DNA of 32,759 nt from an uncultured Anaerolineales bacterium (GTDB lineage Bacteria > Chloroflexota > Anaerolineae > B4-G1 > SLSP01). The translations under genes and the position numbers were made by a program. Of the stretch, positions 3,665 through 32,759 are shown in pieces (position 1 is the first letter of the stretch; every line of letters begins with the position of its first letter). The notes under the pieces are model-generated. The model worked only from the letters and a program-made list of their open reading frames with translations, ran no database searches and had not been told where the DNA came from. The stretch covers positions 128,001 through 160,759 of the forward strand of contig CAZCTC010000010.1 of assembly GCA_964501335.1 (NCBI GenBank). Direction: 5' to 3'.

Positions 3665-3800
3665 AAAAGAGATTTCACCGCAGAGCACGCGGAGATCGCA
3701 GAGAGAGAAGGGAGGAGATTTTCTTTAAATTCTTCTCTGTGCCCTCTGCGCCTCGGCGGTGAGTCTTCGGGATGGGCTATTTTCAGGACAGATAACCATG
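3665..3800 (+). repeat. Copy A of the 3' module of the composite intergenic repeat (gagatttcacc...ttctttaaattcttctctgtg...ggtgagtctt...gggctattttcaggacaga-N-ccATG). Its terminal ATG is the start codon of the downstream kinase.
   Basis: About 80% identical by eye over about 130 bp to 10064-10196. Shared boxes are gagatttcacc, ctttaaattcttctctgtg, ggtgagtctt and ctattttcaggacaga. Confidence 0.7.
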
Positions 3801-4923: not shown

Positions 4924-5182
4924 GAAAAAAAGCCTGTGTTTGGGCGCGCCCAAACATAAATAAAAAACGCAGTACCGCATAATTCACTCAGAACACACCA
5001 CCGAGACGCAGAGGCCGCGGAGAAAAAGCTTAAAAAGCCTCTTTTATCTCTCTCGGCGATCTCGGCGCCTGTTTACAACATCTTCGATCCGCGGTGTATT
5101 TCTTTCGGTTTGCCGTTGAGTTACTTTTGCGGTATTGCTAAAAAATTCTTTCCTTCGATCCAGCGCGTCGTATTTTACCATG
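4924..5182 (+). repeat. Degenerate or rearranged copy C of the composite intergenic repeat. It contains a loop-less 20-bp perfect palindrome TGTTTGGGCGCGCCCAAACA (4936-4956), cacaccaccgagacgcagagg and tccagcgcgtcgtat boxes, and ends in ccATG (5180).
   Basis: Boxes shared with the copies at 9938-10196 and 3665-3800 but in a different order. The palindrome sits where other copies have the hairpin. Confidence 0.5.
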
Positions 5183-5210
5183 AAGAGTTTTGCGCGGGGC
5201 ATAATATCTG

Positions 5211-6653
5211 ATGAAAAGAAAAGAGTGGTTACATTGGGGAGTCTGGTTGCTCACCGCGGCGGCGCTGCTGGGCTATTGGCTGCTGCCGATTTCGGGCGGG
5301 GTGGTGGTCTGGCAGGGTGAATCGGCTCCCTGGCCCTGGCCGTTGATCCAGCTGGAGCCTTCCATGCCACGGGCCGGGCAGCCGTTGACGATCCGGGTGA
5401 CCGATGAACATCCCCGGGTGCATGTTGCGTTGACGATCAATGGGGCCGCGCAGCCGGTATCCATGTGGGGCAAGGTTGCCGAAGGGCGCTGGGGTTGGAC
5501 CTGGGAGGTGATCGCGCCGGCGGCTTCGAGTTATGAGGTGGTTTTTTATTCCGATTGTCATGAGGGCTGTGTGGAGCGGGGCCGGGCGCAGATTGGGACC
5601 GTGGCTACCCCGACCGTTCCGGTGACGCCGACCAAGCTTTGCGTGGTCTTTCCCAATCCAGAACGGGACTGGCACAATCGCAGCGGGTGGGGTGTCGAAG
5701 TGGCTTATGTTAAGCTGGCCGATGATCCCTATTGGGGGCTGGATGGGCTGGCTCAACGGGTCTATCAGGATCAGGCTGCCGGGTTGCGGGTGTTGGTGCG
5801 GGTTGATTATGCCCAGGGGCAGAGTCTGCCCGGTGAAGCGAATTATCTGGAGCTGGATGATTATCTGGCTTATATGCGGCGGCTGGCCCGGGATCAACGG
5901 TTCCGCGATGGGGTGTATGGTTACATAATCGGGGCGGATCTGAATGTCGGACAGACGGGGGTGTCGCCGGCCTGGTATGCGCGGCTTTTTAACGGCTATG
6001 GCGAGGCGGTTTCGCATTCCGACAATGTGGTGCAGACGGTACGGGCGGAGAATCCGACGGTGCGGTTGCTGGTGGGGCCGGTGCGTCCCTGGTGTATGGA
6101 TCGAGACGGCGAGAAGCGGGCTGCGATCAATGTGCCCTGGTTGAATTATATGAATACGCTGGCGGCGGCGTTGGATGAGGGGGGGCAGGCGAAAGCGGGC
6201 GCGGGGATTGCGCTGGCGAGGCCGGACGGCTTTGATATCCAGGCGCCGGGGCATCCGGAGAGTCCGGAGATGCGAGGGCGCTCCCGTGCGGAGGAGCCGC
6301 GGTTGGATCTGGCCCGGGCGGAATGGAAGGGGGCCCAGGCGGGGTTCGGGGTCTATCGGGACTGGCTGACCATTATCAATTCCTATGAGGGATTGGCCGG
6401 GCTGCCGGTCTATATTATTTCGACCAATACCTATGATCGGGAGTCGAATATCCCGCCGGCGCAGAATTATCCTCAGGGGTGGTTGAGTACGGCGGCGGCG
6501 GTGATCGATGGCGAGCCGCAGGTGCAGGCGTTGTGCTGGTTTATGGACGATTTCCCGGATACGGAGGAGTGGGATTATTTCAGTCTGACCCGTCATCCGG
6601 GGCGGTTGGTGGATGCGGCGGAAGAGTTCGATCGTTTACTGCGCGGGCAGTGA
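5211..6653 (+). CDS. Hypothetical secreted or membrane-anchored protein, Trp-rich. Possibly a TIM-barrel glycoside-hydrolase-like fold (weak).
   Basis: 480-aa ORF with an N-terminal signal-anchor-like segment (WLHWGVWLLTAAALLGYWLL). No family motif I can name. The overlapping antisense ORF 5229-6596 is Arg/Pro-rich and judged spurious. Confidence 0.6.
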   Translation: MKRKEWLHWGVWLLTAAALLGYWLLPISGGVVVWQGESAPWPWPLIQLEPSMPRAGQPLTIRVTDEHPRVHVALTINGAAQPVSMWGKVAEGRWGWTWEVIAPAASSYEVVFYSDCHEGCVERGRAQIGTVATPTVPVTPTKLCVVFPNPERDWHNRSGWGVEVAYVKLADDPYWGLDGLAQRVYQDQAAGLRVLVRVDYAQGQSLPGEANYLELDDYLAYMRRLARDQRFRDGVYGYIIGADLNVGQTGVSPAWYARLFNGYGEAVSHSDNVVQTVRAENPTVRLLVGPVRPWCMDRDGEKRAAINVPWLNYMNTLAAALDEGGQAKAGAGIALARPDGFDIQAPGHPESPEMRGRSRAEEPRLDLARAEWKGAQAGFGVYRDWLTIINSYEGLAGLPVYIISTNTYDRESNIPPAQNYPQGWLSTAAAVIDGEPQVQALCWFMDDFPDTEEWDYFSLTRHPGRLVDAAEEFDRLLRGQ

Positions 6654-7298: not shown

Positions 7299-7315
7299 TT
7301 TTGTTTCTTTTTTCG

Positions 7316-7352
7316 CCTTGGGGCGCGCGGTCTACGACTGCGCGCCCCAAGG
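7316..7352 (+). terminator. Perfect 13-bp GC-rich hairpin CCTTGGGGCGCGC-ggtctacgact-GCGCGCCCCAAGG immediately after the response-regulator gene, followed by a weak T-rich stretch (ctatttta). Possible terminator or a further hairpin element.
   Basis: Inverted repeat read directly from the sequence. The T-tract is poor. Confidence 0.4.
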
Positions 7353-7449
7353 CTATTTTATAGCCCTCGGTGAAGCTGGGGATTTCCACAGTAGATGGGC
7401 GGGCGGTGATTTGCTAGAATGAGCCCATCAAGTTTAAGGAGGTTGGGTA

Positions 7450-8385
7450 ATGTCTCAGACCAACAATCAGGCAGGTGGAACTCCCCCTGTGGTGTTGCCT
7501 CCCGTTGCTACTTCGGGGGGAGCGGGATGGCGACAGCTTGAACGTCTCTACAAGTTGGCCGTCGTTATTTTGGCGGGGTTTATCGTCATGGGGGTTCTTT
7601 TTTTTATTGCCCGGTCGGCTATCTACAAAGTCCATGCTTATGAACGAGGGCTGCATTTGCGCGGCGGGCGGTTTATGAGTGTGGATGATCCGGGCTGGCA
7701 TATGCAGATCCCGCTGGTGGATACGGTGGTGATCGTAAAGGTCAATGAGCGGTTGGGCTATGTCGAACGGATCGCGGCGATGACGTCGGACGATGTAACG
7801 ATGAATGTCTCGTTGCAATACACCTATCGCGTCACCGATCCTCAACGGTTTGCACTGGAAGTGGACGATCCGGAGCGGATTGTTTTTGAGTTTGTGCAGG
7901 GCAAGCTGCGGGATGTGGTCAATACCAAGCCGATGACTGAGGTGATGCACAGTCGGGCGGCGATGAATCAAGAGGTTATGGCTTCCCTGCTGGAAAAAGA
8001 GGAGCAGTATGGGGTGAAGTTTATCACCGTACAGATTCAGAGTGCCTCGCCGCCGGATGAGGTTGTTGCGGCGATCAAGGATCGGATGGTCGCGGTGCAA
8101 CGTCAGGAGCAGGCGCAGGCTGAGGCGGCGCAACGGCGGACGCTGGCGGATGCCGATTTCTATGCGGCGCAGAAGAAGGCGGAAGGTGAAGCCTATCAGA
8201 TTACCCGGCTGGCGGAGGCGCAGCAGAAAGCGGTCCATACGTTGTTGCAGGAACTGGCGGCGCAGGGGACGCTGGGGGAGAAATATATCCAGGTGTTGCT
8301 GGCGCAGGAATTGAAAGAGAACAGCAAGTGGGTTTTGACTGGTGAGAGTACGCCGTGGGTGGATTTGGGAACGTCCAAGCCCTAG
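7450..8385 (+). CDS. SPFH / band-7 domain protein (stomatin, prohibitin, HflK/C-like) with an N-terminal TM and a C-terminal coiled-coil
   Basis: 311 aa. SD aaggagg 7428-7434. TM helix VVILAGFIVMGVLFFIA. Core SPFH region (PLVDTVVIVKVNERLGYV...ALEVDDPERI...). Ala/Gln/Glu-rich coiled-coil tail. Confidence 0.85.
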   Translation: MSQTNNQAGGTPPVVLPPVATSGGAGWRQLERLYKLAVVILAGFIVMGVLFFIARSAIYKVHAYERGLHLRGGRFMSVDDPGWHMQIPLVDTVVIVKVNERLGYVERIAAMTSDDVTMNVSLQYTYRVTDPQRFALEVDDPERIVFEFVQGKLRDVVNTKPMTEVMHSRAAMNQEVMASLLEKEEQYGVKFITVQIQSASPPDEVVAAIKDRMVAVQRQEQAQAEAAQRRTLADADFYAAQKKAEGEAYQITRLAEAQQKAVHTLLQELAAQGTLGEKYIQVLLAQELKENSKWVLTGESTPWVDLGTSKP

Positions 8386-8387
8386 GG

Positions 8388-8502
8388 CTGGAAGGGCGGA
8401 AGATTGGAGGATTGGAAGAATGGAAGTACAACGTGATTTTCGCCGGCCTTCTGAGGCCGGCGAAAATCAAATAAAAAGATTTCTTCTCGGGAGGATAAAG
8501 TC
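8388..8502 (+). repeat. Intergenic repeat copy made of five 8-bp periodic GGAAG/GGAGG units (8388-8427), then the hairpin GATTTTCGCCGGCC-TTCTGA-GGCCGGCGAAAATC (8435-8468), then the A-rich box aaataaaaagatttcttctcggg
   Basis: The loop TTCTGA and the right flank (aaa-A-rich-tttcttctc-gg) match the other hairpin copies. Periodicity read directly. Confidence 0.6.
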
Positions 8503-8985
8503 ATGAGAAGATCATGGTGGCTTGTGTTGGGTGGCGTGGTGGTTTTGTTGGGGTATGCCGCAGTGCTGTCGGGGACAACGATTTTTCCGATGATGCAGGA
8601 AGATCTCACCACTCCACGTGTCTATGCCTATCGGGACTGGCAGAGCCAGGGGATTCTGTTGCAGAAAGGCGATTGGGTGCAGGTGCGGGCTCAGGGGCGC
8701 TGGCTCTATACCCCGAAGGAGTATAACGGGCCGGAAGGCCATCGGCGTTATCTGGCTCCGGATTTCTATCCGCTGCCGGGGGTGGCGGGAGGAGCGTTGA
8801 TCGGGCGGATCGGGGAAGAGGGAACACCCTTTTATGTGGGGCGGTATGTCAATTTCCGGGTCGATCAAGAGGGCATGTTCTATTTGCGGATCGATGACGA
8901 TATTTTGAGCGATAACGACGGCTATGTGACGGTGGTGGTGACCGTCACGCCGGCGGAAGAAACAACGAAAGGAGAAGATCAATGA
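8503..8985 (+). CDS. Hypothetical small secreted protein (signal peptide; possibly beta-sandwich or lectin-like)
   Basis: 160 aa. SD gggaggat. N-terminal hydrophobic segment WWLVLGGVVVLLGYAAV. No recognisable catalytic motif. Confidence 0.5.
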   Translation: MRRSWWLVLGGVVVLLGYAAVLSGTTIFPMMQEDLTTPRVYAYRDWQSQGILLQKGDWVQVRAQGRWLYTPKEYNGPEGHRRYLAPDFYPLPGVAGGALIGRIGEEGTPFYVGRYVNFRVDQEGMFYLRIDDDILSDNDGYVTVVVTVTPAEETTKGEDQ

Positions 8986-9557
8986 AAGCTTTCCAGGAAT
9001 TTGGGCTGCAATGGATTCGGGCGATGACCTATCCATTGGTTCTGGGGGGGCTTTTTATGGGGTGGTACATGGGGTATTACTGGATGTTGTTTGTGACGGA
9101 AGGTCTGGGGGTGCCCTGGGATACGTCGGTTGTGCTGCCTCCGGTGGGATACTGGCAGCGTACTTTGAATGATTTCTTTTCGGCCGGTGTGGGAGCCTAT
9201 CTGCCGGCTGTGATTTTCCTGGCCGTGAATATCTTTCTCTTTGTCCGTGCCGTGATCCATACGAAGAATTTGCGAATGTCGGCGCTTGTTTTTGGGGTGG
9301 TCAATTTGATCGCGGTCGTTGTCTGGGTGGTAATTGCGAGCCCGATCCGAGATTCTATGGTGATTCCTGCCCATCTTACGGTGGATGATTGGGCTTACTG
9401 GGGGGATTTTAGAAGGGAGTGGCCGTTGCTGGGGCTCACTTTTGGGATTTTGGTGAGTCTTTTTTCCTTTTTGGTTTATTGGGGCCGGCGTCAGGGTGGA
9501 GGTGGCGGTTCGGTTGTCGGCATTCCTCATACGTCGCAGCCCGTTCTTTACTCATAA
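8982..9557 (+). CDS. Hypothetical integral membrane protein (4-5 TM)
   Basis: 191 aa. Start ATGA overlaps the upstream stop (translational coupling). SD aaaggagaag. Several hydrophobic helices. Gly-rich C-terminus. Confidence 0.55.
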   Translation: MKAFQEFGLQWIRAMTYPLVLGGLFMGWYMGYYWMLFVTEGLGVPWDTSVVLPPVGYWQRTLNDFFSAGVGAYLPAVIFLAVNIFLFVRAVIHTKNLRMSALVFGVVNLIAVVVWVVIASPIRDSMVIPAHLTVDDWAYWGDFRREWPLLGLTFGILVSLFSFLVYWGRRQGGGGGSVVGIPHTSQPVLYS

Positions 9558-9624: not shown

Positions 9625-9838
9625 CCATATCAGGCAACTTAAGGCGATTCATCAGTAGATCCCAGCTTTGGGACATCCCGCAAAGAGTATTTTCCCTGTA
9701 AGGTGCGACGCGCGGGAGGGGGGAGAGAGTTTTTTTATTCATTTTTTCGCGCGCCGTCTGCGGCGCGCGAAAAAATGGGCTTTCTTTCCCTTTTTCCGGG
9801 CGATTGCTGTTGCAAATGGTTTAAGTTGCCTGATATGG
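9625..9838 (-). repeat. Minus-oriented copy of the hairpin repeat (hairpin CATTTTTTCGCGCGCC-GTCTGC-GGCGCGCGAAAAAATG at 9739-9776; CGCGTCG and TTTGCGGGAtG boxes) bounded by 18-bp perfect terminal inverted repeats ccatatcaggcaacttaa (9625-9642) and ttaagttgcctgatatgg (9821-9838). MITE-like.
   Basis: The inverted repeats are an exact reverse complement. The internal boxes align with copy 9938-10196 when reverse-complemented. Confidence 0.65.
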
Positions 9839-9937: not shown

Positions 9938-10196
9938 TGTCGCCAGGGCGGCTCTGGAAAAGCCTATGTTTTTGCGCGCATTCTGATGCGCGCAAAAACA
10001 TAAACAAAAAAATTCTCTCTCCCGGTCCAGCGCGTCGTATCTGGCCGGGAAAAGATCATTTGCGGGACGCTAAAAGAGATTTCACCACAGAGGCGCAGAG
10101 AGCACGGAGAAGAAGAGAGGAGATTTTTCTTTAAATTCTTCTCTGTGTTTCCGTGGTGAGTCTTTTCTGGGCCTATTTTCAGGACAGAAGGCCATG
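9938..10196 (+). repeat. Full-length copy B of the composite intergenic repeat. Order: left box tgtcgccagggcggctctggaaaagcc; hairpin TATGTTTTTGCGCGCA-TTCTGA-TGCGCGCAAAAACATA (9965-10002); A-rich tract; tccagcgcgtcgtat; second small hairpin cccggtccag...ctggccggg; catttgcgggacgc; gagatttcacc module; ctttaaattcttctctgtg; ggtgagtctt; ctattttcaggacagaaggccATG.
   Basis: Every module recurs in the other copies (3665-3800, 4924-5182, 8388-8502, 9625-9838, 26341-26813, 29515-29645, 31025-31125, 32500-32759). Confidence 0.75.
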
Positions 10197-10325
10197 CAGT
10201 GGCGGCACCCCGAAAAAAGGTGAAATACCCCGAGGTTTTTTTGCATCCTCTGGATTTGGATTATACTTAAGCTGTTTCCTCTCTGATTGATGTTCCATAT
10301 TTCATTTTGCCTAAGGAGATGCAGG

Positions 10326-15063: not shown

Positions 15064-15250
15064 AACGTATTTCCTGTCCTGCGCGGCGTTACAAGGCCGG
15101 GGGGCGGTACTTCAAAGGATGAAAATGGTTTGTCGGGTGCAGTTTCCTGGGGTCTGCGAATCCCAGGCTACCCTAAGGTCGCCCCTTTGGGGCTGAGAAG
15201 GCTCGACAAAAAGGTGCCTGCTAATTTAGCGAAGGCAAAAAAGGGGAAGG

Positions 15251-15288
15251 GGGGAATTTGCACGCCTTCTGAGGCGTGCAAATTCCCC
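15251..15288 (+). repeat. Perfect 16-bp hairpin GGGGAATTTGCACGCC-TTCTGA-GGCGTGCAAATTCCCC, a member of the TTCTGA-loop hairpin family, in the gap between the DUF4129 gene and moxR
   Basis: Exact inverted repeat with the family loop TTCTGA. Preceded by an A/G-rich tract (aaaaaaggggaagggg). No 3' T-tract. Confidence 0.7.
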
Positions 15289-20904: not shown

Positions 20905-20942
20905 AAGCCCTTCTCGATAGTCTTATCGAGAAGGGCTTTTTG
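20905..20942 (+). terminator. Rho-independent terminator: 15-bp stem AAGCCCTTCTCGATA-gtct-TATCGAGAAGGGCTT followed by TTTTG
   Basis: Perfect inverted repeat plus a 3' T-run, 30 bp after the stop of 20576-20875. Confidence 0.7.
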
Positions 20943-26295: not shown

Positions 26296-26340
26296 AAATG
26301 CAGCGGAAGTAGACAGCATCAAGTAGACAGTAGACAGCCT

Positions 26341-26813
26341 GTGTCGCCGGGGCAGCTCTGGAAAGGGCTATGTTTTCGTGCTTAGCCCTCACCCCAACCC
26401 CTCCCCATGCAGTAGTACCGGTGTAGCGCGCTTTCGGGTGATTCCTGGTGAAGATGCGCGGCCGGCATGGAGGTGAGGGGCTTAAGATGACGTCGCCGGG
26501 GCGGCTCTGGAAAGGGCTATGTTTTCGTGCTTAGCCCTCACCCCAACCCCTCCCCATGCAGTAGTACCGGTGTAGCGCGCTTTCGGGTGATTCCTGGTGA
26601 AGATGCGCGGCCGGCATGGAGGTGAGGGGCTTAAGATGACGTCGCCGGGGCGGCTCTGGAAAGGGCTATGTTTTCGTGCGCATCAGAATGCGCACGAAAA
26701 CATCAACAAAAAACTCTCTCCCGATCCTGCGCGGCGTAGCTTAGGGGGAAAGTATCATTTGCGGGACGCCACAGGGTTGACCTGTTTTCAGGACCGTCGT
26801 GAGGTGATTTATG
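26341..26813 (+). repeat. Copy D of the composite repeat. It contains a 148-bp unit tandemly duplicated 2.3 times (26345-26640). Each complete unit splits the family hairpin with a 111-bp insert bounded by imperfect inverted repeats (ttagccctcacc ... ggtgaggggcttaa). The intact hairpin TATGTTTTCGTGCGCA-TCAGAA-TGCGCACGAAAACAT lies at 26667-26703, followed by the cctgcgcggcgta and catttgcgggacgc boxes and ttttcaggac...ATG.
   Basis: Units 26345-26492 and 26493-26640 are identical except for one base (gcagctctgg vs gcggctctgg). The third unit continues into the intact hairpin. All boxes match the other copies. Confidence 0.7.
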
Positions 26814-26948
26814 CCTTTTGTGGAAGAAACCGATCAACAAATTACCCTTGAGTTCAATTTTCTGGATATCCCCCTGTTGATTTATATGCCGGGTAGCACA
26901 AAGCCGCTTGTTCATTATCCCGATAATCGAAGTAAAAGGTAGGGTGAA
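26811..26948 (+). CDS. Possible 45-aa small ORF (MPFVEETDQQITLEFNFLDIPLLIYMPGSTKPLVHYPDNRSKR). Its ATG is supplied by the 3' end of repeat copy D and its stop abuts the SD of the next gene.
   Basis: SD-like gaggtga 5 nt before the ATG. Unbiased composition. No homology I can recognise. Below the ORF-track length cut-off. Confidence 0.2.
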
Positions 26949-27455
26949 ATGAAGCGGATCAAATTGCTGAGGCCTATGCGAGAGCCACCGCGTTACGATG
27001 TCTATCTGGTTCTGCGCGAGCGGATTTTGACGACTCGTCCCGAGGATCTGGGCGTGCCGGCCGAGACGGAAGGCCGGGAGCCCTGGGGTGTTTTGATGGA
27101 AATGGCCTATCCTGACGGCATGGCTTCGCTGGTGGCGATGGGAACGGGGGATGCCAGCCTCTATTTCAGCAGCGGACAGGGGGTCCTGGGTGATCTCCAT
27201 CAGCGACGGGTACGCCAGGCAACCCAGGCTTTTGTCAAGGCGGCGCGGCATTATCTTTCCTGGATGTTGCCGGCTGAGCAGTGTCCTTTACCCGGGATGG
27301 GACAGGCGCGGTTCTATATTTTGACACCGGATGGGGTCTTTACTGCGGAGGCCGGGATCATGGAGCTGATCGGGCGACGGCATTCTCTGGCCCCTTTCTT
27401 TTATGCCGGGCAGGATGTGATTACAGGGCTGCGAATGGCGACGGAAAAGCAATAA
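26949..27455 (+). CDS. Hypothetical protein (168 aa)
   Basis: ORF with SD aaggtagggtga. No motif I can name. Confidence 0.5.
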   Translation: MKRIKLLRPMREPPRYDVYLVLRERILTTRPEDLGVPAETEGREPWGVLMEMAYPDGMASLVAMGTGDASLYFSSGQGVLGDLHQRRVRQATQAFVKAARHYLSWMLPAEQCPLPGMGQARFYILTPDGVFTAEAGIMELIGRRHSLAPFFYAGQDVITGLRMATEKQ

Positions 27456-27474
27456 TCATAGAAGGAGCTGATGA

Positions 27475-28452
27475 ATGATCCGTTCGGTTTATCATCCCAA
27501 AGCTGGGCCGGTGGAGTTCAATATAGATTTCAATCGGCTGAAGGTCGCCGTTGAGGATCGTGAAGGTATGGTGTGGGTCAGTCTGGAGCATGCCTCAACG
27601 GATGAGGTCTATGCGGTACTGCGCGATATCTTTCATTTTCACCCGCTGGCGATTGAAGATTGTCTGAGTGAGGAGTATCAGCCTCCCAAGGTAGACGATT
27701 TTGACGATTATATTTTTGTGATCATGCATGCTCTCCGGCCGGAATTTCCTCTTGATCAGCTCGATACGAGGGAGTTGAATTGTTTCCTGGGGTGTAATTA
27801 TGTGGTTACCTCGACGGTTGCGGAGGTTATGCCGCCGGTACAGGATGTCTGGGACCGAATCAAGCGGGATGAGCGGTTGTTGCATCGCGGCGCTGATTTC
27901 CTTTGCCATGCCCTGTTGGATGCACTGGTCGATAATTACATGCCGATCCTGGACATTATGGATGAACAGCTGGATCGGTTGGAGGCCGAGGTGTTGGATC
28001 GGCCCCGCGCCGATACCTTGCAGCAGATTTTAGGACTCAAACACAGTGTATTGGTATTGCGGCGGGTGGTTTCACCTCAACGCGAGGTGATGAACCGGCT
28101 CAGCCGTGACGAATTTGCTCAGATCACCGAGGATCGGCGCATCTATTTCCGGGATATTTACGACCATCTGGTGCGGGTCAATGATCTGAGCGAGTCGGTG
28201 CGGGATGTCATCAGCGGGACGCTCGATACCTATCTTTCGGTGACATCCAATCGGCTCAATGAAGTGATGAAGGCTCTGACCGTGGTTTCGACGATTTTTC
28301 TGCCGCTTTCTTTTATTGCCGGGGTTTATGGGATGAACTTCGAGTTTATGCCGGAATTGCACTGGCGGTACGGCTATCTTTTTGTCTGGGCTGTTTTCAT
28401 TGGGGTGGCCTGGTTTATGGTGCGGATTTTCAGGAGGCAGGGGTGGTGGTGA
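27475..28452 (+). CDS. corA: Magnesium/cobalt transporter CorA
   Basis: SD gaaggag. Cytoplasmic domain then two C-terminal TM helices with the signature GMNFEFMPEL (GMN motif). Confidence 0.9.
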   Translation: MIRSVYHPKAGPVEFNIDFNRLKVAVEDREGMVWVSLEHASTDEVYAVLRDIFHFHPLAIEDCLSEEYQPPKVDDFDDYIFVIMHALRPEFPLDQLDTRELNCFLGCNYVVTSTVAEVMPPVQDVWDRIKRDERLLHRGADFLCHALLDALVDNYMPILDIMDEQLDRLEAEVLDRPRADTLQQILGLKHSVLVLRRVVSPQREVMNRLSRDEFAQITEDRRIYFRDIYDHLVRVNDLSESVRDVISGTLDTYLSVTSNRLNEVMKALTVVSTIFLPLSFIAGVYGMNFEFMPELHWRYGYLFVWAVFIGVAWFMVRIFRRQGWW

Positions 28453-28453
28453 A

Positions 28454-29449
28454 ATGGAACTGGATTGGTTTGAGGTAAATCGTGCGGCTGTTCAGCAGCG
28501 GGTCGCCTGGCTGAAAACTGAAATGGACGGGGTGGTATATGTGGGTTCTTCAGCTTTACACGATCTGGTGGTGACGAAGTCGGGATCGTGGCTGGAGCTG
28601 GGTTTTGTCGATCCTACGTCTGATGAAGTCATGTCCCGGCTCGATCTCGACGATCCTTTGAATTTACTTTCTCCTTATATGCAGTCGATGATGCTGGGAC
28701 TTCTCTGGCGTCCTGAGCCGCAGCAAGCCTATCTGATCGGGTTTGGCGGCGGCAATATCCCCCTGGTTTTACATCATTACTATCCCGAATTGACGATTGA
28801 GAGTGCGGAGATCGATCCTGAGGTTGTGCGGCTGGCCTGCGCTTATTTTGGGGTGGTTCCGGATGACCGGTTGCGAGTTGCGGTGGAAGATGGACGTGCC
28901 GGGCTGGAGCGAGGAATGCCGGGACAGTATGATATGGTCTTTGTCGATGCCTTTCGCGGGACGGGCTATGGGCCATATCATTTGGGGACCCTGGAATTTT
29001 TCCAGCTTTGTAAGGAACGATTGGTCGACGGGGGCGTGTTGGCGATCAATCTCTATCGGGGCGATTTTCTCTGTTGGGAGAAGATGAAGACCCTGATGAC
29101 GGTCTTCCCGGAAGTGCTCTGTGTGCCTTTGCACAATGCCGCCGTCCTTTTTGCTTCCAATGCGCGGCCGGGTGATATTGAAGCCCGTCTGGCCGGGTTA
29201 CAGGAACGGCATCATTTTACTTTTCCTTTTGTAACACAGGGGCGAAAGTTGATGCCGCTCTTAGAACTGGCGGCGATGAATGGGGCTGATTGGCACGCGG
29301 CGCCGATTTTGCGGGATGGGGAGCTGCCGCCGGGGTATTGCGAGCAGATTTCGGGACGCAGTACGATTTTCAGGAAGGCTTTGCCGGAGGATCTCTGTCC
29401 CTGCGGTTCAGGGAAGCTGCTCAAAGTGTGTCATGGTCGGGATCAATAA
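28454..29449 (+). CDS. Spermidine/spermine-synthase-like class I SAM-dependent methyltransferase-fold protein with a C-terminal SEC-C metal-binding motif
   Basis: ATG 1 nt after the corA stop. YLIGFGGGNIPLVLHHY (Gly-rich SAM/dcSAM loop). ESAEIDPEVV. YDMVFVDAF. C-terminal CPCGSGKLLKVCHG, which is the SEC-C motif as at the SecA C-terminus. Confidence 0.75.
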   Translation: MELDWFEVNRAAVQQRVAWLKTEMDGVVYVGSSALHDLVVTKSGSWLELGFVDPTSDEVMSRLDLDDPLNLLSPYMQSMMLGLLWRPEPQQAYLIGFGGGNIPLVLHHYYPELTIESAEIDPEVVRLACAYFGVVPDDRLRVAVEDGRAGLERGMPGQYDMVFVDAFRGTGYGPYHLGTLEFFQLCKERLVDGGVLAINLYRGDFLCWEKMKTLMTVFPEVLCVPLHNAAVLFASNARPGDIEARLAGLQERHHFTFPFVTQGRKLMPLLELAAMNGADWHAAPILRDGELPPGYCEQISGRSTIFRKALPEDLCPCGSGKLLKVCHGRDQ

Positions 29450-29463
29450 ATCAATTTTTCGTG

Positions 29464-29501
29464 GCCGCCTTCTAAGGCGACCACGAAAAATCAAAAAAGT
29501 T
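29464..29501 (+). repeat. Hairpin family member ATTTTTCGTGGCCGCC-TTCTAA-GGCGACCACGAAAAAT (one C.A mismatch; loop variant TTCTAA) directly after the methyltransferase stop
   Basis: Inverted repeat read from the sequence with the same T5-stem-loop-stem-A5 layout as the other copies. It sits 35 bp upstream of the next hairpin. Confidence 0.6.
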
Positions 29502-29514
29502 ATCCATCTATGCA

Positions 29515-29645
29515 GTTGGTTGGGAGAAAAATCTATTTTTTCGCGCGCCGTCTGCGGCGCGCGAAAAAATAAACAAAAAAATTTCCCCCATCCAGCGTGT
29601 CGTTTCGAGCCGAACAAAAGCCTTTTGCGGGACGCTAAAATGCTA
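29515..29645 (+). repeat. Repeat copy with hairpin TATTTTTTCGCGCGCC-GTCTGC-GGCGCGCGAAAAAATA (29534-29571), then aaacaaaaaaatttccccc, tccagcgtgtcgt and ttttgcgggacgctaaaa boxes, in the convergent gap between the methyltransferase gene and obg
   Basis: The hairpin core is identical to the one at 9741-9774. Flank boxes match copy B. Confidence 0.7.
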
Positions 29646-29662
29646 ACCGCACAAGTTGAAAA

Positions 29663-30931
29663 TTATTCTTCTTCGCGCCACTCCAATTCGTAATCCCCAA
29701 TGCGTACCAGATCGCCCTCCTGGACTCCGGCTTTGCGCAGCGCAGAGAGCACTCCCTGGTGTTCCAGATAGCGGTGTAACCGCATCAACGCATCATCCAT
29801 ATTCAACGGTGTCCGGCGAACGGCCCGTTCGATCTTGCCGTTGGTGACCCGCCAGATGCCGTCGTAATCGCGTTCTACTACGACCGGTTCCTCGGGTTCG
29901 GGCCGGAAGACCGGCGTCTGAATTTCTTCCGCGGGCGGCGGTGGGGTTTCCTGCAACAGCTGATAGGCCCGGCCCAACAGCGGGCGCAGGTTTTCCGTGG
30001 TGGCGCCGGAAATACCCCAGACTTCATAGCCCATCTTTTCCAGCGCTTCTTTGATGGTGGGGAAGGCTTCCCGGGCTTCGGGAATATCCAGTTTGTTTAC
30101 GGCCACGATTTGCGGCCGTTCGGCCAATCCATGGCCGAAGGCGGCCAGTTCCGCATTGATGGTGGTGAAATCCTCGATGGGATCTTCTGCCGAGCCGTCC
30201 AGCAGATGGAGCAGGATGCGGGTCCGCTCGATATGTTTCAGAAATTCCAATCCGAGCCCTTTGCCTTCGCTGGCGCCTTCGATCAGGCCTGGAAGGTCTG
30301 CCAGCACAAAGGTGTTATTGGTACTCAACGCGACGACGCCCAGGATGGGATGGAGGGTGGTGAAGGGGTAATCGGCGATGGCCGGTTTGGCGGCCGTCGT
30401 GGCGGCCAGCAGCGTGGATTTGCCGGCATTGGGCTTGCCGACCAGACCGACATCGGCCAGCAATTTCAACTCCAGATGAATCCAGCGATCTTCGCCGGGT
30501 TCCCCGTGTTCTGCGATGCGGGGGGCGCGATTGTTGGACGTCACGAAATGTTTATTGCCTCGTCCGCCCCGGCCGCCCCGGGCCACGACGTAACGGGTCC
30601 CTTTTTCGGTCAGATCGGCGAGCAGTTCCCCGGTTTCGGCATCGCGGACCATCGTGCCGGGGGGGACGAGAATGACCATGTCCTTGCCGGCGGCGCCATA
30701 TTGATCCTTGTTGCGGCCGTTCTCGCCGTTGTCGGCGAGAAACTGGGGGTGGTGGGCAAACATGTAGAGGGTGTTGAGATGGGTATCAACTTCCAGGACG
30801 ATGTCCCCGCCCTTGCCGCCGTCGCCGCCGGAGGGGCCGCCGAAGGGGACATACTTTTCACGCCGGAACATGGCGGCACCGTTGCCGCCGTCGCCGGCCT
30901 TAACGTAAATTTTCACTTCATCGTAAAACAT
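29663..30931 (-). CDS. obg: GTPase Obg/CgtA
   Basis: N-terminal Obg fold MFYDEVKIYVKAGDGGNGAAMFRREKYVPFGGPSGGDGGKGGDIVLEVD. G1 GKPNAGKST. G3 DLPG. G4 NKLD. C-terminal OCT-like domain. Confidence 0.95.
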   Translation of the reverse strand: MFYDEVKIYVKAGDGGNGAAMFRREKYVPFGGPSGGDGGKGGDIVLEVDTHLNTLYMFAHHPQFLADNGENGRNKDQYGAAGKDMVILVPPGTMVRDAETGELLADLTEKGTRYVVARGGRGGRGNKHFVTSNNRAPRIAEHGEPGEDRWIHLELKLLADVGLVGKPNAGKSTLLAATTAAKPAIADYPFTTLHPILGVVALSTNNTFVLADLPGLIEGASEGKGLGLEFLKHIERTRILLHLLDGSAEDPIEDFTTINAELAAFGHGLAERPQIVAVNKLDIPEAREAFPTIKEALEKMGYEVWGISGATTENLRPLLGRAYQLLQETPPPPAEEIQTPVFRPEPEEPVVVERDYDGIWRVTNGKIERAVRRTPLNMDDALMRLHRYLEHQGVLSALRKAGVQEGDLVRIGDYELEWREEE

Positions 30932-31024
30932 TCAGGTTCCTCGCTTTGGTTACACTGCGCCCTCTACGTATACTACATAGTTGCAGAAAAGTCAAAAAAG
31001 AAAGTAGACAGGAAGATTGCACGG

Positions 31025-31125
31025 GTTGGAAAAAAGTCCGTGTTTTTGCGCGCATTCTGATGCGCGCAAAAACACAAACAAAAACTCTCTCCGTTTATCC
31101 CGCGCGTCGTTTTTTACCAGGAAAG
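31025..31125 (+). repeat. Repeat copy with hairpin TGTTTTTGCGCGCA-TTCTGA-TGCGCGCAAAAACA (31041-31074), then aaacaaaaactctctcc and cccgcgcgtcgt boxes, between the obg start and the MFS gene end
   Basis: The hairpin core is identical to the one at 9965-10002. Flank boxes match. Confidence 0.7.
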
Positions 31126-31141
31126 CACCGGCTGTGGGGCG

Positions 31142-32416
31142 TTAATTTTTTCCCAATTTCACTTTTTTAAAGAACATAAAGGCCAGAGCATTGATCAGGA
31201 TGGCCGCGATGAAAAGTGCCGACATGCCGAAGAGATCGACCAGGCCGCCGCAGAGTCCGCTCAGGATCAGGGTGACCCCGAAAACGGTATTGGCAAAGCC
31301 TATCGCCAACGTTCGATCATCGGCGGGAATAATTTCCATCAGCAGCGTTTGGCCGGAGATGGCTTCCATGGGACTGAGCAGGCCTACCAGGGCAAAGATC
31401 GGATAGGCGGCCATGTAGGCGGGGAAGGGGAAGCCCGGCGCGAAAAGTCGACTGCTCAACAGGTCCAGGCCGAGCGCCAGTATGGCCAGCAATCCCCAGC
31501 CCAGAGCGGCCCCGCACAAAATCCAGCGGTGTCCCCGCCGATCTGCGATCCAGCCCCAGGGGTAGTTGGCGATCAATCTGAAAAAGGTCACGATGGTCAG
31601 ATAGTCGGTAGCGGCCTGGGCCGGGGCCTGGAGGGTGCGCTGGGCCTGGAGTGAATAGAAGGGGATTACGATCATGCCCAAAAAGAGAAAGCTGCGCCCC
31701 AACACCATATTTCGATAGGTGGCGTCATTTTTTAGATAATTCCAGCCGCGGCGCAGTTGATTACTGAGGGAGTTGACTGCGCGGGTGGGGCCCGGCGGTT
31801 CTTTGGTCAATGAGAAGATGACCAGAGCCAGGCCTCCTACGATGGCGGAGATGAAGATCAGGAGGGCGTAGTTGCGGGGGAAAGAGAGGCCGCCGCTGAG
31901 GATCGGGCCGATGATCTGGACGCCGGCGAGGGCCAGCAGGCCGGCGCTGAGCTGGCGTAAGGCGAACATTCGCCCGCGTTGATGGGGAGCGATGGTTTTG
32001 ACCGTCACTTCCAGGAAGGGGATGCCGGCCAGTCCGGAGGTAACCCGTCCGGCGAAGTAGATCAGGTAAAAGGCGACCAGCAACGCCGTCGGTTCGCGAA
32101 TCCACCAGAGGGCGGCGGCCAGGGAGAGCCAGGTTGCCACCCGGACGATGGTCAGCCAGCGGTAGATGATGATCTGGCGAGGGAATTTTTGCAGCCAGCC
32201 GGAGATGAAGATTTGGGGAAGATACCAGCCTCCGGTGTTGATGGGAGCGATGAGCCCTAACAGGATGTTGGATTGGGTGAGCTGGCTGGCGAACCAGAGG
32301 AGTACCAGATTGGCATCCATGAGGGCGTCGGAGAAAGTGGAGATTCCGCCGTTGGCGACATTGAGTGCAAAGGCTTCCCGGCTTTCGCGCGGAGTGAGTT
32401 GTTCTGTTTGGGCCAT
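31142..32416 (-). CDS. MFS (major facilitator superfamily) transporter, 12 TM predicted
   Basis: 424 aa, hydrophobic throughout. MFS motif-A-like GWIADRRGHRWIL and GRVTSGLAG segments. SD aggatgaa before the minus-strand ATG. Confidence 0.85.
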   Translation of the reverse strand: MAQTEQLTPRESREAFALNVANGGISTFSDALMDANLVLLWFASQLTQSNILLGLIAPINTGGWYLPQIFISGWLQKFPRQIIIYRWLTIVRVATWLSLAAALWWIREPTALLVAFYLIYFAGRVTSGLAGIPFLEVTVKTIAPHQRGRMFALRQLSAGLLALAGVQIIGPILSGGLSFPRNYALLIFISAIVGGLALVIFSLTKEPPGPTRAVNSLSNQLRRGWNYLKNDATYRNMVLGRSFLFLGMIVIPFYSLQAQRTLQAPAQAATDYLTIVTFFRLIANYPWGWIADRRGHRWILCGAALGWGLLAILALGLDLLSSRLFAPGFPFPAYMAAYPIFALVGLLSPMEAISGQTLLMEIIPADDRTLAIGFANTVFGVTLILSGLCGGLVDLFGMSALFIAAILINALAFMFFKKVKLGKN

Positions 32417-32499
32417 GATATAAGTTCATCCTGTTGATCTGAGCATAGATGGGGCCATTCTACCTCAGCATTCTTGTGGGACAAGAGCCCATCTTTTGG

Positions 32500-32759
32500 G
32501 GCCCCCGGCATGGCCGTCTGTCCTGAAAATAGCCCCGTCTAAGGTGCGACGCACTTTCTATCCCTGAAACCGACGATTCAAACGACTCAACGTGGGAACA
32601 AGTCGTCTGTCCTTGCAAGATCAGAGTGCGTTGCACCTCTTTGAGAAATCCTCCTCACCCGCACAAGGCCCCTCTCCCGTAAGCTACGCCGCGCAGGATA
32701 GGGGGAGAGTTTTTTTGTTTATGTTTTCGCGGGCTTCAGAAAGCCCGCGAAAACATAGG
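32500..32759 (-). repeat. Minus-oriented copy of the composite repeat (hairpin TATGTTTTCGCGGGCTT-TCAGAA-AGCCCGCGAAAACATA at 32720-32757; cctgcgcggcgtagctta and ctattttcaggacagacggccATG boxes) upstream of the MFS gene. Cut by the window end.
   Basis: The reverse complement aligns with copy D (26700-26800) and with the 3' module of copies A and B. Its ATG at 32509-32511 opens a frame that runs out of phase into the MFS start. Confidence 0.65.

Follow-up and report, generated by a model that had tools for sequence, protein, structure and literature searches.

Short stem-loop repeats are known from bacterial genomes as several families, among them REPs (repetitive extragenic palindromes) and BIMEs (bacterial interspersed mosaic elements), REPINs and MITEs (miniature inverted-repeat transposable elements). 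Stem-loop families of bacteria have also been the subject of a survey (PMC2267715). Quasipalindrome and template-switch mutations have been studied in E. coli and provide a related precedent for the events discussed here. In plastids, Kelchner and Wendel are said to have described, in 1996, minute inversions associated with hairpins in non-coding DNA. Small inversions in plastomes have also been surveyed (for example, PMC6824564). A closer parallel comes from ribosomal RNA, where 69 inversions confined to the loop, bacterial cases included, have been attributed to inter-strand template switching (Monttinen and Loytynoja 2022; PMC8794818). This process inverts the loops of perfectly paired hairpins with no footprint in the stem, and it can yield several "compensatory" changes at once (PMC8794818). 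Here, we discuss a family of intergenic hairpin repeats in a 32,759-nt stretch (the window) of contig CAZCTC010000010.1 from an uncultured Anaerolineales bacterium. In one copy, referred to as copy D, and in two others, a perfect palindrome encloses a four-base loop that is reverse-complemented relative to the family majority, while the surrounding sequence keeps its orientation.

Loop inversion between co-linear flanks

The copies in the window were aligned with one copy past the window end (ext32979) and with copies on two related contigs, L003 and L004, of metagenome-assembled genomes (MAGs). The source of the ext32979 copy was L001, a JGI contig that has 99.98% identity to window positions 26504-32759. 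The aligned copies define an asymmetric element, and its flanks orient each copy without ambiguity. The element starts with a G/A-rich 5′ box (…GGAAAAGCC), followed by a palindrome whose perfect 16-17 bp arms enclose a 4-nt spacer. On the 3′ side of the palindrome are an A-tract (AAACAAAAAAA), CTCTCTCCC and the conserved box TCCAGCGCGTCGT; a fixed-length 22-nt spacer then leads to a second conserved box, TTTGCGGGACGC. As an earlier note on this DNA pointed out, the loop alone reports the orientation of a perfect palindrome, and this premise holds for copy D. The features of copy D and of the copy with which it is compared are as follows.

26343-26640, plus strand: two tandem 149-nt units, 99% identical, just upstream of D
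26641-26667, plus strand: 5′ flank box of D (GACGTCGCCGGGGCGGCTCTGGAAAGGGCT), co-linear with 9939-9964
26668-26703, plus strand: hairpin of D, a perfect 16-bp stem with loop CAGA at 26684-26687 (family majority, TCTG)
26704-26769, plus strand: 3′ flank box of D, comprising the A-tract, CTCTCTCCC, TCCTGCGCGGCGT and TTTGCGGGACGC, with 80% identity to 10005-10070
9965-10002, plus strand: reference copy, 17-bp stem, loop TCTG

The hairpin of copy D reads ATGTTTTCGTGCGCAT-CAGA-ATGCGCACGAAAACAT, whereas the 9965 copy carries TCTG, and both flanks of D are co-oriented with those of 9965. Compared directly, the flanks of the two copies match at 34 of 45 positions on the 5′ side and at 58 of 75 on the 3′ side; when one copy is reversed, the matches drop to 14/45 and 29/75. 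The earlier note had claimed an inverted loop for D and had named a truly reverse orientation of D's flanks as the finding that would overturn the claim. Direct matches lie far above reverse matches, and the claim stands. All four loop bases are changed to the exact reverse complement while the 16-bp stem remains perfect. We estimate the chance of this outcome via point mutation, at about 20% divergence, as roughly 0.2^4 × (1/3)^4, or about 2 × 10^-5. An assembly error at D is unlikely because JGI and Logan contigs show CAGA as well. The JGI contig (L001/L005) spans D and both flanks with the same loop, the single mismatch in 6256 nt being elsewhere, and the Logan contig L006 begins with CAGAATGCGCACGAAAACATCAACAAAAAAC, in which the inverted loop is joined to the unique 3′ flank of D.

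A second flipped copy, which the earlier note did not contain, lies on the minus strand and is the centre of a larger unit.

9740-9777, minus strand: second flipped copy (w9740), own-strand loop CAGA; the plus strand reads TCTG at 9757-9760
9625-9838, minus strand: MITE-like unit of 214 nt around the 9740 hairpin, with perfect 18-nt terminal inverted repeats (TIRs), CCATATCAGGCAACTTAA

The flanks of w9740 are minus-oriented (58/75 matches), with the loop CAGA on that same strand. They are co-linear with the flanks of a copy on L003, L003_5889, matching at 51 of 60 and 94 of 120 positions. The 214-nt unit is found again at this non-syntenic locus (L003 5774-5990; 82.6% identity), where the loop is unflipped. 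The homology between the two loci stops at the TIRs and the adjoining genes differ. Only this subfamily forms a TIR-bounded, discrete and non-coding unit at unrelated loci, as a MITE does. Imperfect candidate target duplications of 8-9 bp were read by eye: the window has CGCTG-CCC / CGCTGTCCC, and L003 has GGGGATAAG / GGGG-TAAAC. No second assembly of w9740 was recovered via exact-protein look-ups of the genes at 8982-9557, 8503-8985 and 7450-8385, and the contig found via the peptidase ends at window position 10170, short of the w9740 hairpin.

A scan of the window for perfect hairpins gave eight intergenic members of one family, at 8434, 9740, 9965, 15251, 26668, 29534, 31040 and 32720. All eight have a perfect stem of 16-17 bp, and their 4-nt loops are TCTG or CAGA when read on the plus strand; two degenerate copies (29454-29491 and 4935-4958) accompany them. 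Besides those listed above, the copies in the window are:

4935-4958, plus strand: loop-less copy (w4935), TGTGTTTGGGCG|CGCCCAAACATA; family flanks kept, centre symmetrically deleted
8434-8469, plus strand: divergent copy, loop TCTG, orientation from the A-rich 3′ flank only
15251-15288, plus strand: divergent copy, loop TCTG, orientation backed by 5′-flank homology to L003_79
29454-29491, plus strand: degenerate copy, one stem mismatch, centre TTCTAA
29534-29571, plus strand: copy with loop TCTG, downstream of obg, terminator-like on the minus strand
31040-31075, plus strand: copy with loop TCTG, downstream of an MFS gene, terminator-like on the minus strand
32658-32719, minus strand: 3′ flank box belonging to the 32720 copy, reverse-complementary to the 3′ box of D
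32720-32757, minus strand: 17-bp perfect stem, loop TCTG on its own strand (CAGA on the plus strand, 32737-32740)

The census comprises 17 oriented copies, from the window, ext32979, and L003 and L004, the first two loci listed by the genome scan. In element orientation, the loop has the majority form in 14/17 (TCTG, in one copy TCTT) and is its reverse complement in 3/17. The flipped copies are D and w9740, both with CAGA, and L004_2391, with AAGA, the reverse complement of the TCTT in L004_3554; in all three the loop is an exact reverse complement at unchanged length. The three flips are independent events and not one inherited variant, because each belongs to a different flank subfamily with other members that are unflipped. 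D shares its 5′ module with 9965, 32720, ext32979 and L004_6147, all unflipped; w9740 shares its own with L003_5889, the unflipped copy of the same TIR-bounded unit; and L004_2391 does so with L004_2191 and L004_3554, both unflipped. The 14:3 bias gives a two-sided binomial value of about 0.013 by our own arithmetic, which treats as separate trials copies that are not independent.

The earlier note had proposed tabulating the loops in an alignment anchored on the flanks. The tabulation bears out the existence of flips, in D as well as in w9740 and L004_2391, and it agrees that the copies at 9965, 31041, 8435 and 15251 all carry TCTG in flank orientation (at 8435 as judged from the A-rich 3′ flank only). 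It removes the copy at 32720-32757 from the flipped examples, where it had been placed through an error of strand reading. Its 3′ flank matches (52/75) in minus orientation only, its flank boxes invert those of D, and its own minus strand reads TTCTGA (32736-32741), the majority form.

Two other relationships were considered for the loop and set aside. An association with chromosome strand is unsupported (6:3 by strand vs 7:2 by flank in the extended window), and one with the direction of local transcription is contradicted by 31040 and D.

The contig L004 (CAZHVY010000024.1) carries six family copies in 8 kb and belongs to a MAG labelled "uncultured Geobacter sp.", which is likely a case of mis-binning or a wrong label. 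The Logan contigs (k=31) L002 and L006 break at hairpins of the family; two starts lie exactly at the loop and one end lies in the right arm, 10 nt past it. These palindromes are weak points for coverage as well as for assembly.

Symmetric change in the stems

In the 17-copy alignment, 13 of 17 stem pairs are variable. There are 54 two-sided Watson-Crick changes, no one-sided change, and no G-T/G-U wobble. The proportion of paired cells is 95.8%, compared with 75% in shuffles; the observed values were reached by 0 of 500 shuffles, and slid controls collapse. Selection at the RNA level normally tolerates wobble intermediates, of which there are none here. Symmetry this strict is better explained by a palindrome at the DNA level, or by templating from one arm to the other, than by RNA-only selection.

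The centres of some copies have been remodelled symmetrically as well: L004_1452 has the centre ACT-GTC-AGT, and w4935 has no loop. Moreover, each of the 149-nt tandem units upstream of D opens with the 5′ flank of D, followed by 12 nt from the start of D's left arm (…GGCTCTGGAAAGGGCTATGTTTTCGTGC). The duplication junction is thus inside the left hairpin arm of D. The JGI contig L001 terminates within this tandem repeat, and the copy number may be uncertain.

In a related species of Anaerolineae (Obg identity 70%), a different hairpin can be compared between two assemblies of one intergenic locus (L009 1041-1083 and L011 1028-1070). It has a stem of about 17-20 bp, and its loop is TAT in one assembly vs ATA in the other, the exact reverse complement. 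Around the hairpin, the two sequences are nearly identical, with a mean column identity of 95% over 274 columns, including a 13-nt indel, and with a few single-base differences. Judged by this alignment, the difference is a loop-inversion polymorphism at an orthologous site. The symmetric centres, the duplication junction in the arm, and the TAT/ATA polymorphism all agree with a DNA-level palindrome or with arm-templated copying.

Perfect hairpins of 15-18 bp that are unrelated to the family are found in the window at 7315-7353 and 20905-20938, directly after a gene end and with a T-run next to them. Ordinary terminators of this host also have unusually long perfect stems.

How the loops may have been inverted

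We consider it probable that the hairpins are the core of a previously undescribed REP/MITE-like repeat of Anaerolineae, the palindrome of which is now and then inverted in place. The ancestral spacer, in element orientation, would be TCTG, and about one copy in six would carry it inverted in place, through an event at the DNA level for which the two arms supply the homology. The likeliest route would be inter-strand template switching at the replication fork. The same product could arise from recombination between the arms (cruciform or snap-back), or from conversion off an oppositely oriented copy. Arm-templated copying of this same class is probably also what holds the arms to perfect Watson-Crick complementarity while the stems diverge between copies. 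The flips, their mutual independence, and the strict palindromy are direct observations from which we infer the molecular route. The earlier note had taken a flipped loop to mean inversion of the palindrome or its re-synthesis through a hairpin; copy D supports this view, and w9740, L004_2391 and the TAT/ATA pair agree with it, while the example at 32720 falls away.

Several points weigh against in-place inversion as we propose it. The sequence alone does not separate template switching, cruciform or arm recombination, hairpin-primed copying, and conversion. The census is small, and both metagenome scans added no members to it; the 14:3 bias may come from shared ancestry or from selection on loop orientation. 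The flip at w9740 rests on a single assembly, in which an error is possible, and the L009/L011 polymorphism could itself be an assembly artefact. In addition, k-mers that lie wholly within a perfect hairpin are common to both orientations, and De Bruijn assemblers cannot orient the loop if k is smaller than arm, loop and flank together. These last considerations raise the prospect that the loops were misoriented by a k-mer assembler, or by fold-back or template switching in vitro during library preparation. Logan contigs do break exactly at these loops, and for w9740 there is no second assembly. At D, however, the flipped loop is present in a JGI contig that extends across both flanks, and a Logan 31-mer links the loop, the arm and 11 nt of unique flank; moreover, arm and loop together come to only about 21 nt, below the usual final k. 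An artefact is therefore a very improbable source of the flips.

A biological alternative, absent from the earlier note, is ectopic gene conversion, in which oppositely oriented copies pair via their palindromic arms and a short conversion tract imports the loop of the donor, flipped relative to the flanks of the recipient. Copies do occur in both orientations no more than 20 kb apart. Moreover, the plus-strand sequences of two 36-nt hairpins, at 9741-9776 and 29535-29570, are 100% identical even though the first belongs to a minus-strand element and the second to a plus-strand element, with opposed flanks. This same-strand identity fits ectopic conversion at least as well as it fits inversion in place. 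The stem TTTTTTCGCGCGCCG is, however, also present in the unflipped L003_5889, so that the match to 29535 can be shared ancestry. The stem of D, GTGCGCAT, is unique in the data, and no donor is known for it, while the flipped L004_2391 lies in a locus where all six copies found have the same orientation. We regard conversion as unlikely, though it is the more credible of the alternatives. Less credible is a reading of the hairpin as a palindromic module in its own right, like the palindromic unit in a BIME, that can be inserted or assembled beside the other modules in either orientation; its orientation would then have been fixed at the birth of each copy, with no later inversion. The family is indeed modular, with a 3′ box that is found without a hairpin at 5138-5203, three different 5′ modules, and one TIR-bounded subfamily. 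Against this, w9740 and L003_5889, and likewise D and 9965, have their specific modules in common on both sides, and their stems are almost alike, so that the flip post-dates the joining of the modules, and the junction positions are identical in flipped and unflipped copies.

It is also conceivable, at a similarly low probability, that the palindromes are actively maintained and mobilised as single-stranded DNA hairpins by a HUH/Y1-type or other hairpin-recognising enzyme, a candidate agent that would be encoded elsewhere in the genome. The flips, the symmetric centres, and the arm-junction duplication would then be footprints of one ongoing process of hairpin-templated copying, specific to an undescribed Chloroflexota repeat family, and the loop orientation (14:3) would be selected, the element being strand-specific. 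Inversion in place, with the arms as its own homology, is the reading that we carry into the comparison below.

The repeat family and known systems

The copies of the repeat are all intergenic, and the host segment is an ordinary stretch of bacterial chromosome. Genes in the window include those for histidine kinases, MoxR/DUF58, peptidase S9, CorA, Obg, and an MFS transporter, and Obg homologues place the host in Anaerolineae (Chloroflexota), the nearest relative being 72% identical. A family-specific pattern has six matches in the window vs none in 100 shuffles. As single-stranded DNA, the hairpins have folding energies of -20 to -24 kcal/mol (z = -7.8 to -9.9). At least three alternative modules are found upstream of the 5′ box of the element. 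Because its boxes are separable and one subfamily is TIR-bounded, the family reads as a modular, partly MITE-like, non-coding dispersed repeat with a conserved core of about 110-120 nt.

Other repeated sequences lie near some copies. A conserved box, CTATTTTCAGGACAGA(A/C)GGCCATGC, is found at 10169-10202, 32503-32536 (minus strand), 3774-3800 and 26780-26795, with genes downstream of it and several of the elements 110-200 nt upstream. This box may belong to a longer composite element or be a motif of 5′ untranslated regions. A second type of repeat is present at 10076-10170 and 3719-3762. Here, 23 nt (TTTTCTTTAAATTCTTCTCTGTG) are repeated exactly at 3719 and 10125, and 3730-3762 matches 10082-10114 in inverted orientation over 33 nt; the two matches together make up a long, imperfect hairpin, which is inserted between the element at 9965 and the TTTTCAGGACAGAAGGCCATGC box downstream of it. 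In addition, two to four direct GTAGACAG repeats precede some copies by 30-60 nt (the first unit at 26343, the 32720 copy, and L004_6147), located as follows.

Window 26305-26340: GTAGACAG repeats
L001, past the window end: GTAGACAG repeats
L004, about 6210-6260: GTAGACAG repeats

Searches for a described counterpart gave little. Rfam 15 had no match in the window at the gathering score, and with E values up to 5 there were two weak matches, neither of which models the element: rli59 (27.8 bits, gathering score 100), which spans the 29457 and 29534 copies at 29449-29629, and Acido-Lenti-1, at 15146-15194 with 23.4 bits. A strict DNA-pattern scan of metagenomes that included flank sequence returned no matches, and a loose scan for the hairpin only returned 120 loci, none with the loop or flanks of the family. 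The family is also absent from the loci L008-L011 of the nearest Obg relative. Within the 3′ box, a sigma-70 promoter was considered and rejected, there being no consistent -35/-10 pair at proper spacing by eye and none flagged in the elements by the scan. An RNA helix, GCGTC/GACGC, was likewise dismissed, because its substitutions in D and 32720 are uncompensated.

The antisense strand of the element is flagged as terminator-like at 9740, 29534, 29457, 31040, 8434 and 4937, with a T-run that starts 2-4 nt past the stem; in this direction, by our reading of the gene positions, only about 4 of 11 copies are downstream of a gene. The family resembles REP/BIME, REPIN and MITE repeats, with which it shares being short, dispersed, intergenic, palindromic and modular, occurring in both orientations, and looking like a terminator on one strand. 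In one subfamily only, the likeness to MITEs extends to TIRs and perhaps to a duplicated target site of about 8-9 bp. Unlike REPs, which are imperfect palindromes, the present stems are perfect and long (16-17 bp). The REP hallmark GTAG is absent next to the stem in the aligned copies, where the sequence 5′ of the stem reads GCC(T/C)A, and no gene for a RAYT or other transposase was found in the 32.8-kb window or among the scanned main open reading frames of L003 and L004. Modular, partly TIR-bounded, terminator-like on one strand and with no Rfam match, the family adds an undescribed feature to Anaerolineae genomes.

For practical purposes, the value of these copies is mostly cautionary: the loops of palindromic repeats are homoplastic and are weak points in assemblies, and the strand must be tracked when copies are compared. 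At the same time, loop flips in paralogous copies provide a clean natural record, within a bacterial chromosome, of inversion mediated by inverted repeats (through a cruciform or a template switch). Since stem changes are never one-sided, this process, and not stepwise compensatory mutation, may also be what keeps the hairpins perfect.

As in the published template-switch cases (PMC8794818), a 4-nt loop is reverse-complemented in place between perfect arms, and the stem shows no footprint. Those cases concern ribosomal RNA and microRNA genes and were traced on phylogenies, whereas here paralogous copies of a multi-copy intergenic repeat are compared. With the minute inversions of plastids, the flips have in common that a spacer between short inverted repeats is inverted recurrently and homoplastically in intergenic DNA; the plastid inversions differ in that they affect single-copy loci of organelle genomes and usually involve longer loops. 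The type of event is already known, from template-switch loop inversions and from plastid minute inversions, and it is recorded here, with nothing to suggest a new mechanism, in a previously undescribed repeat family.

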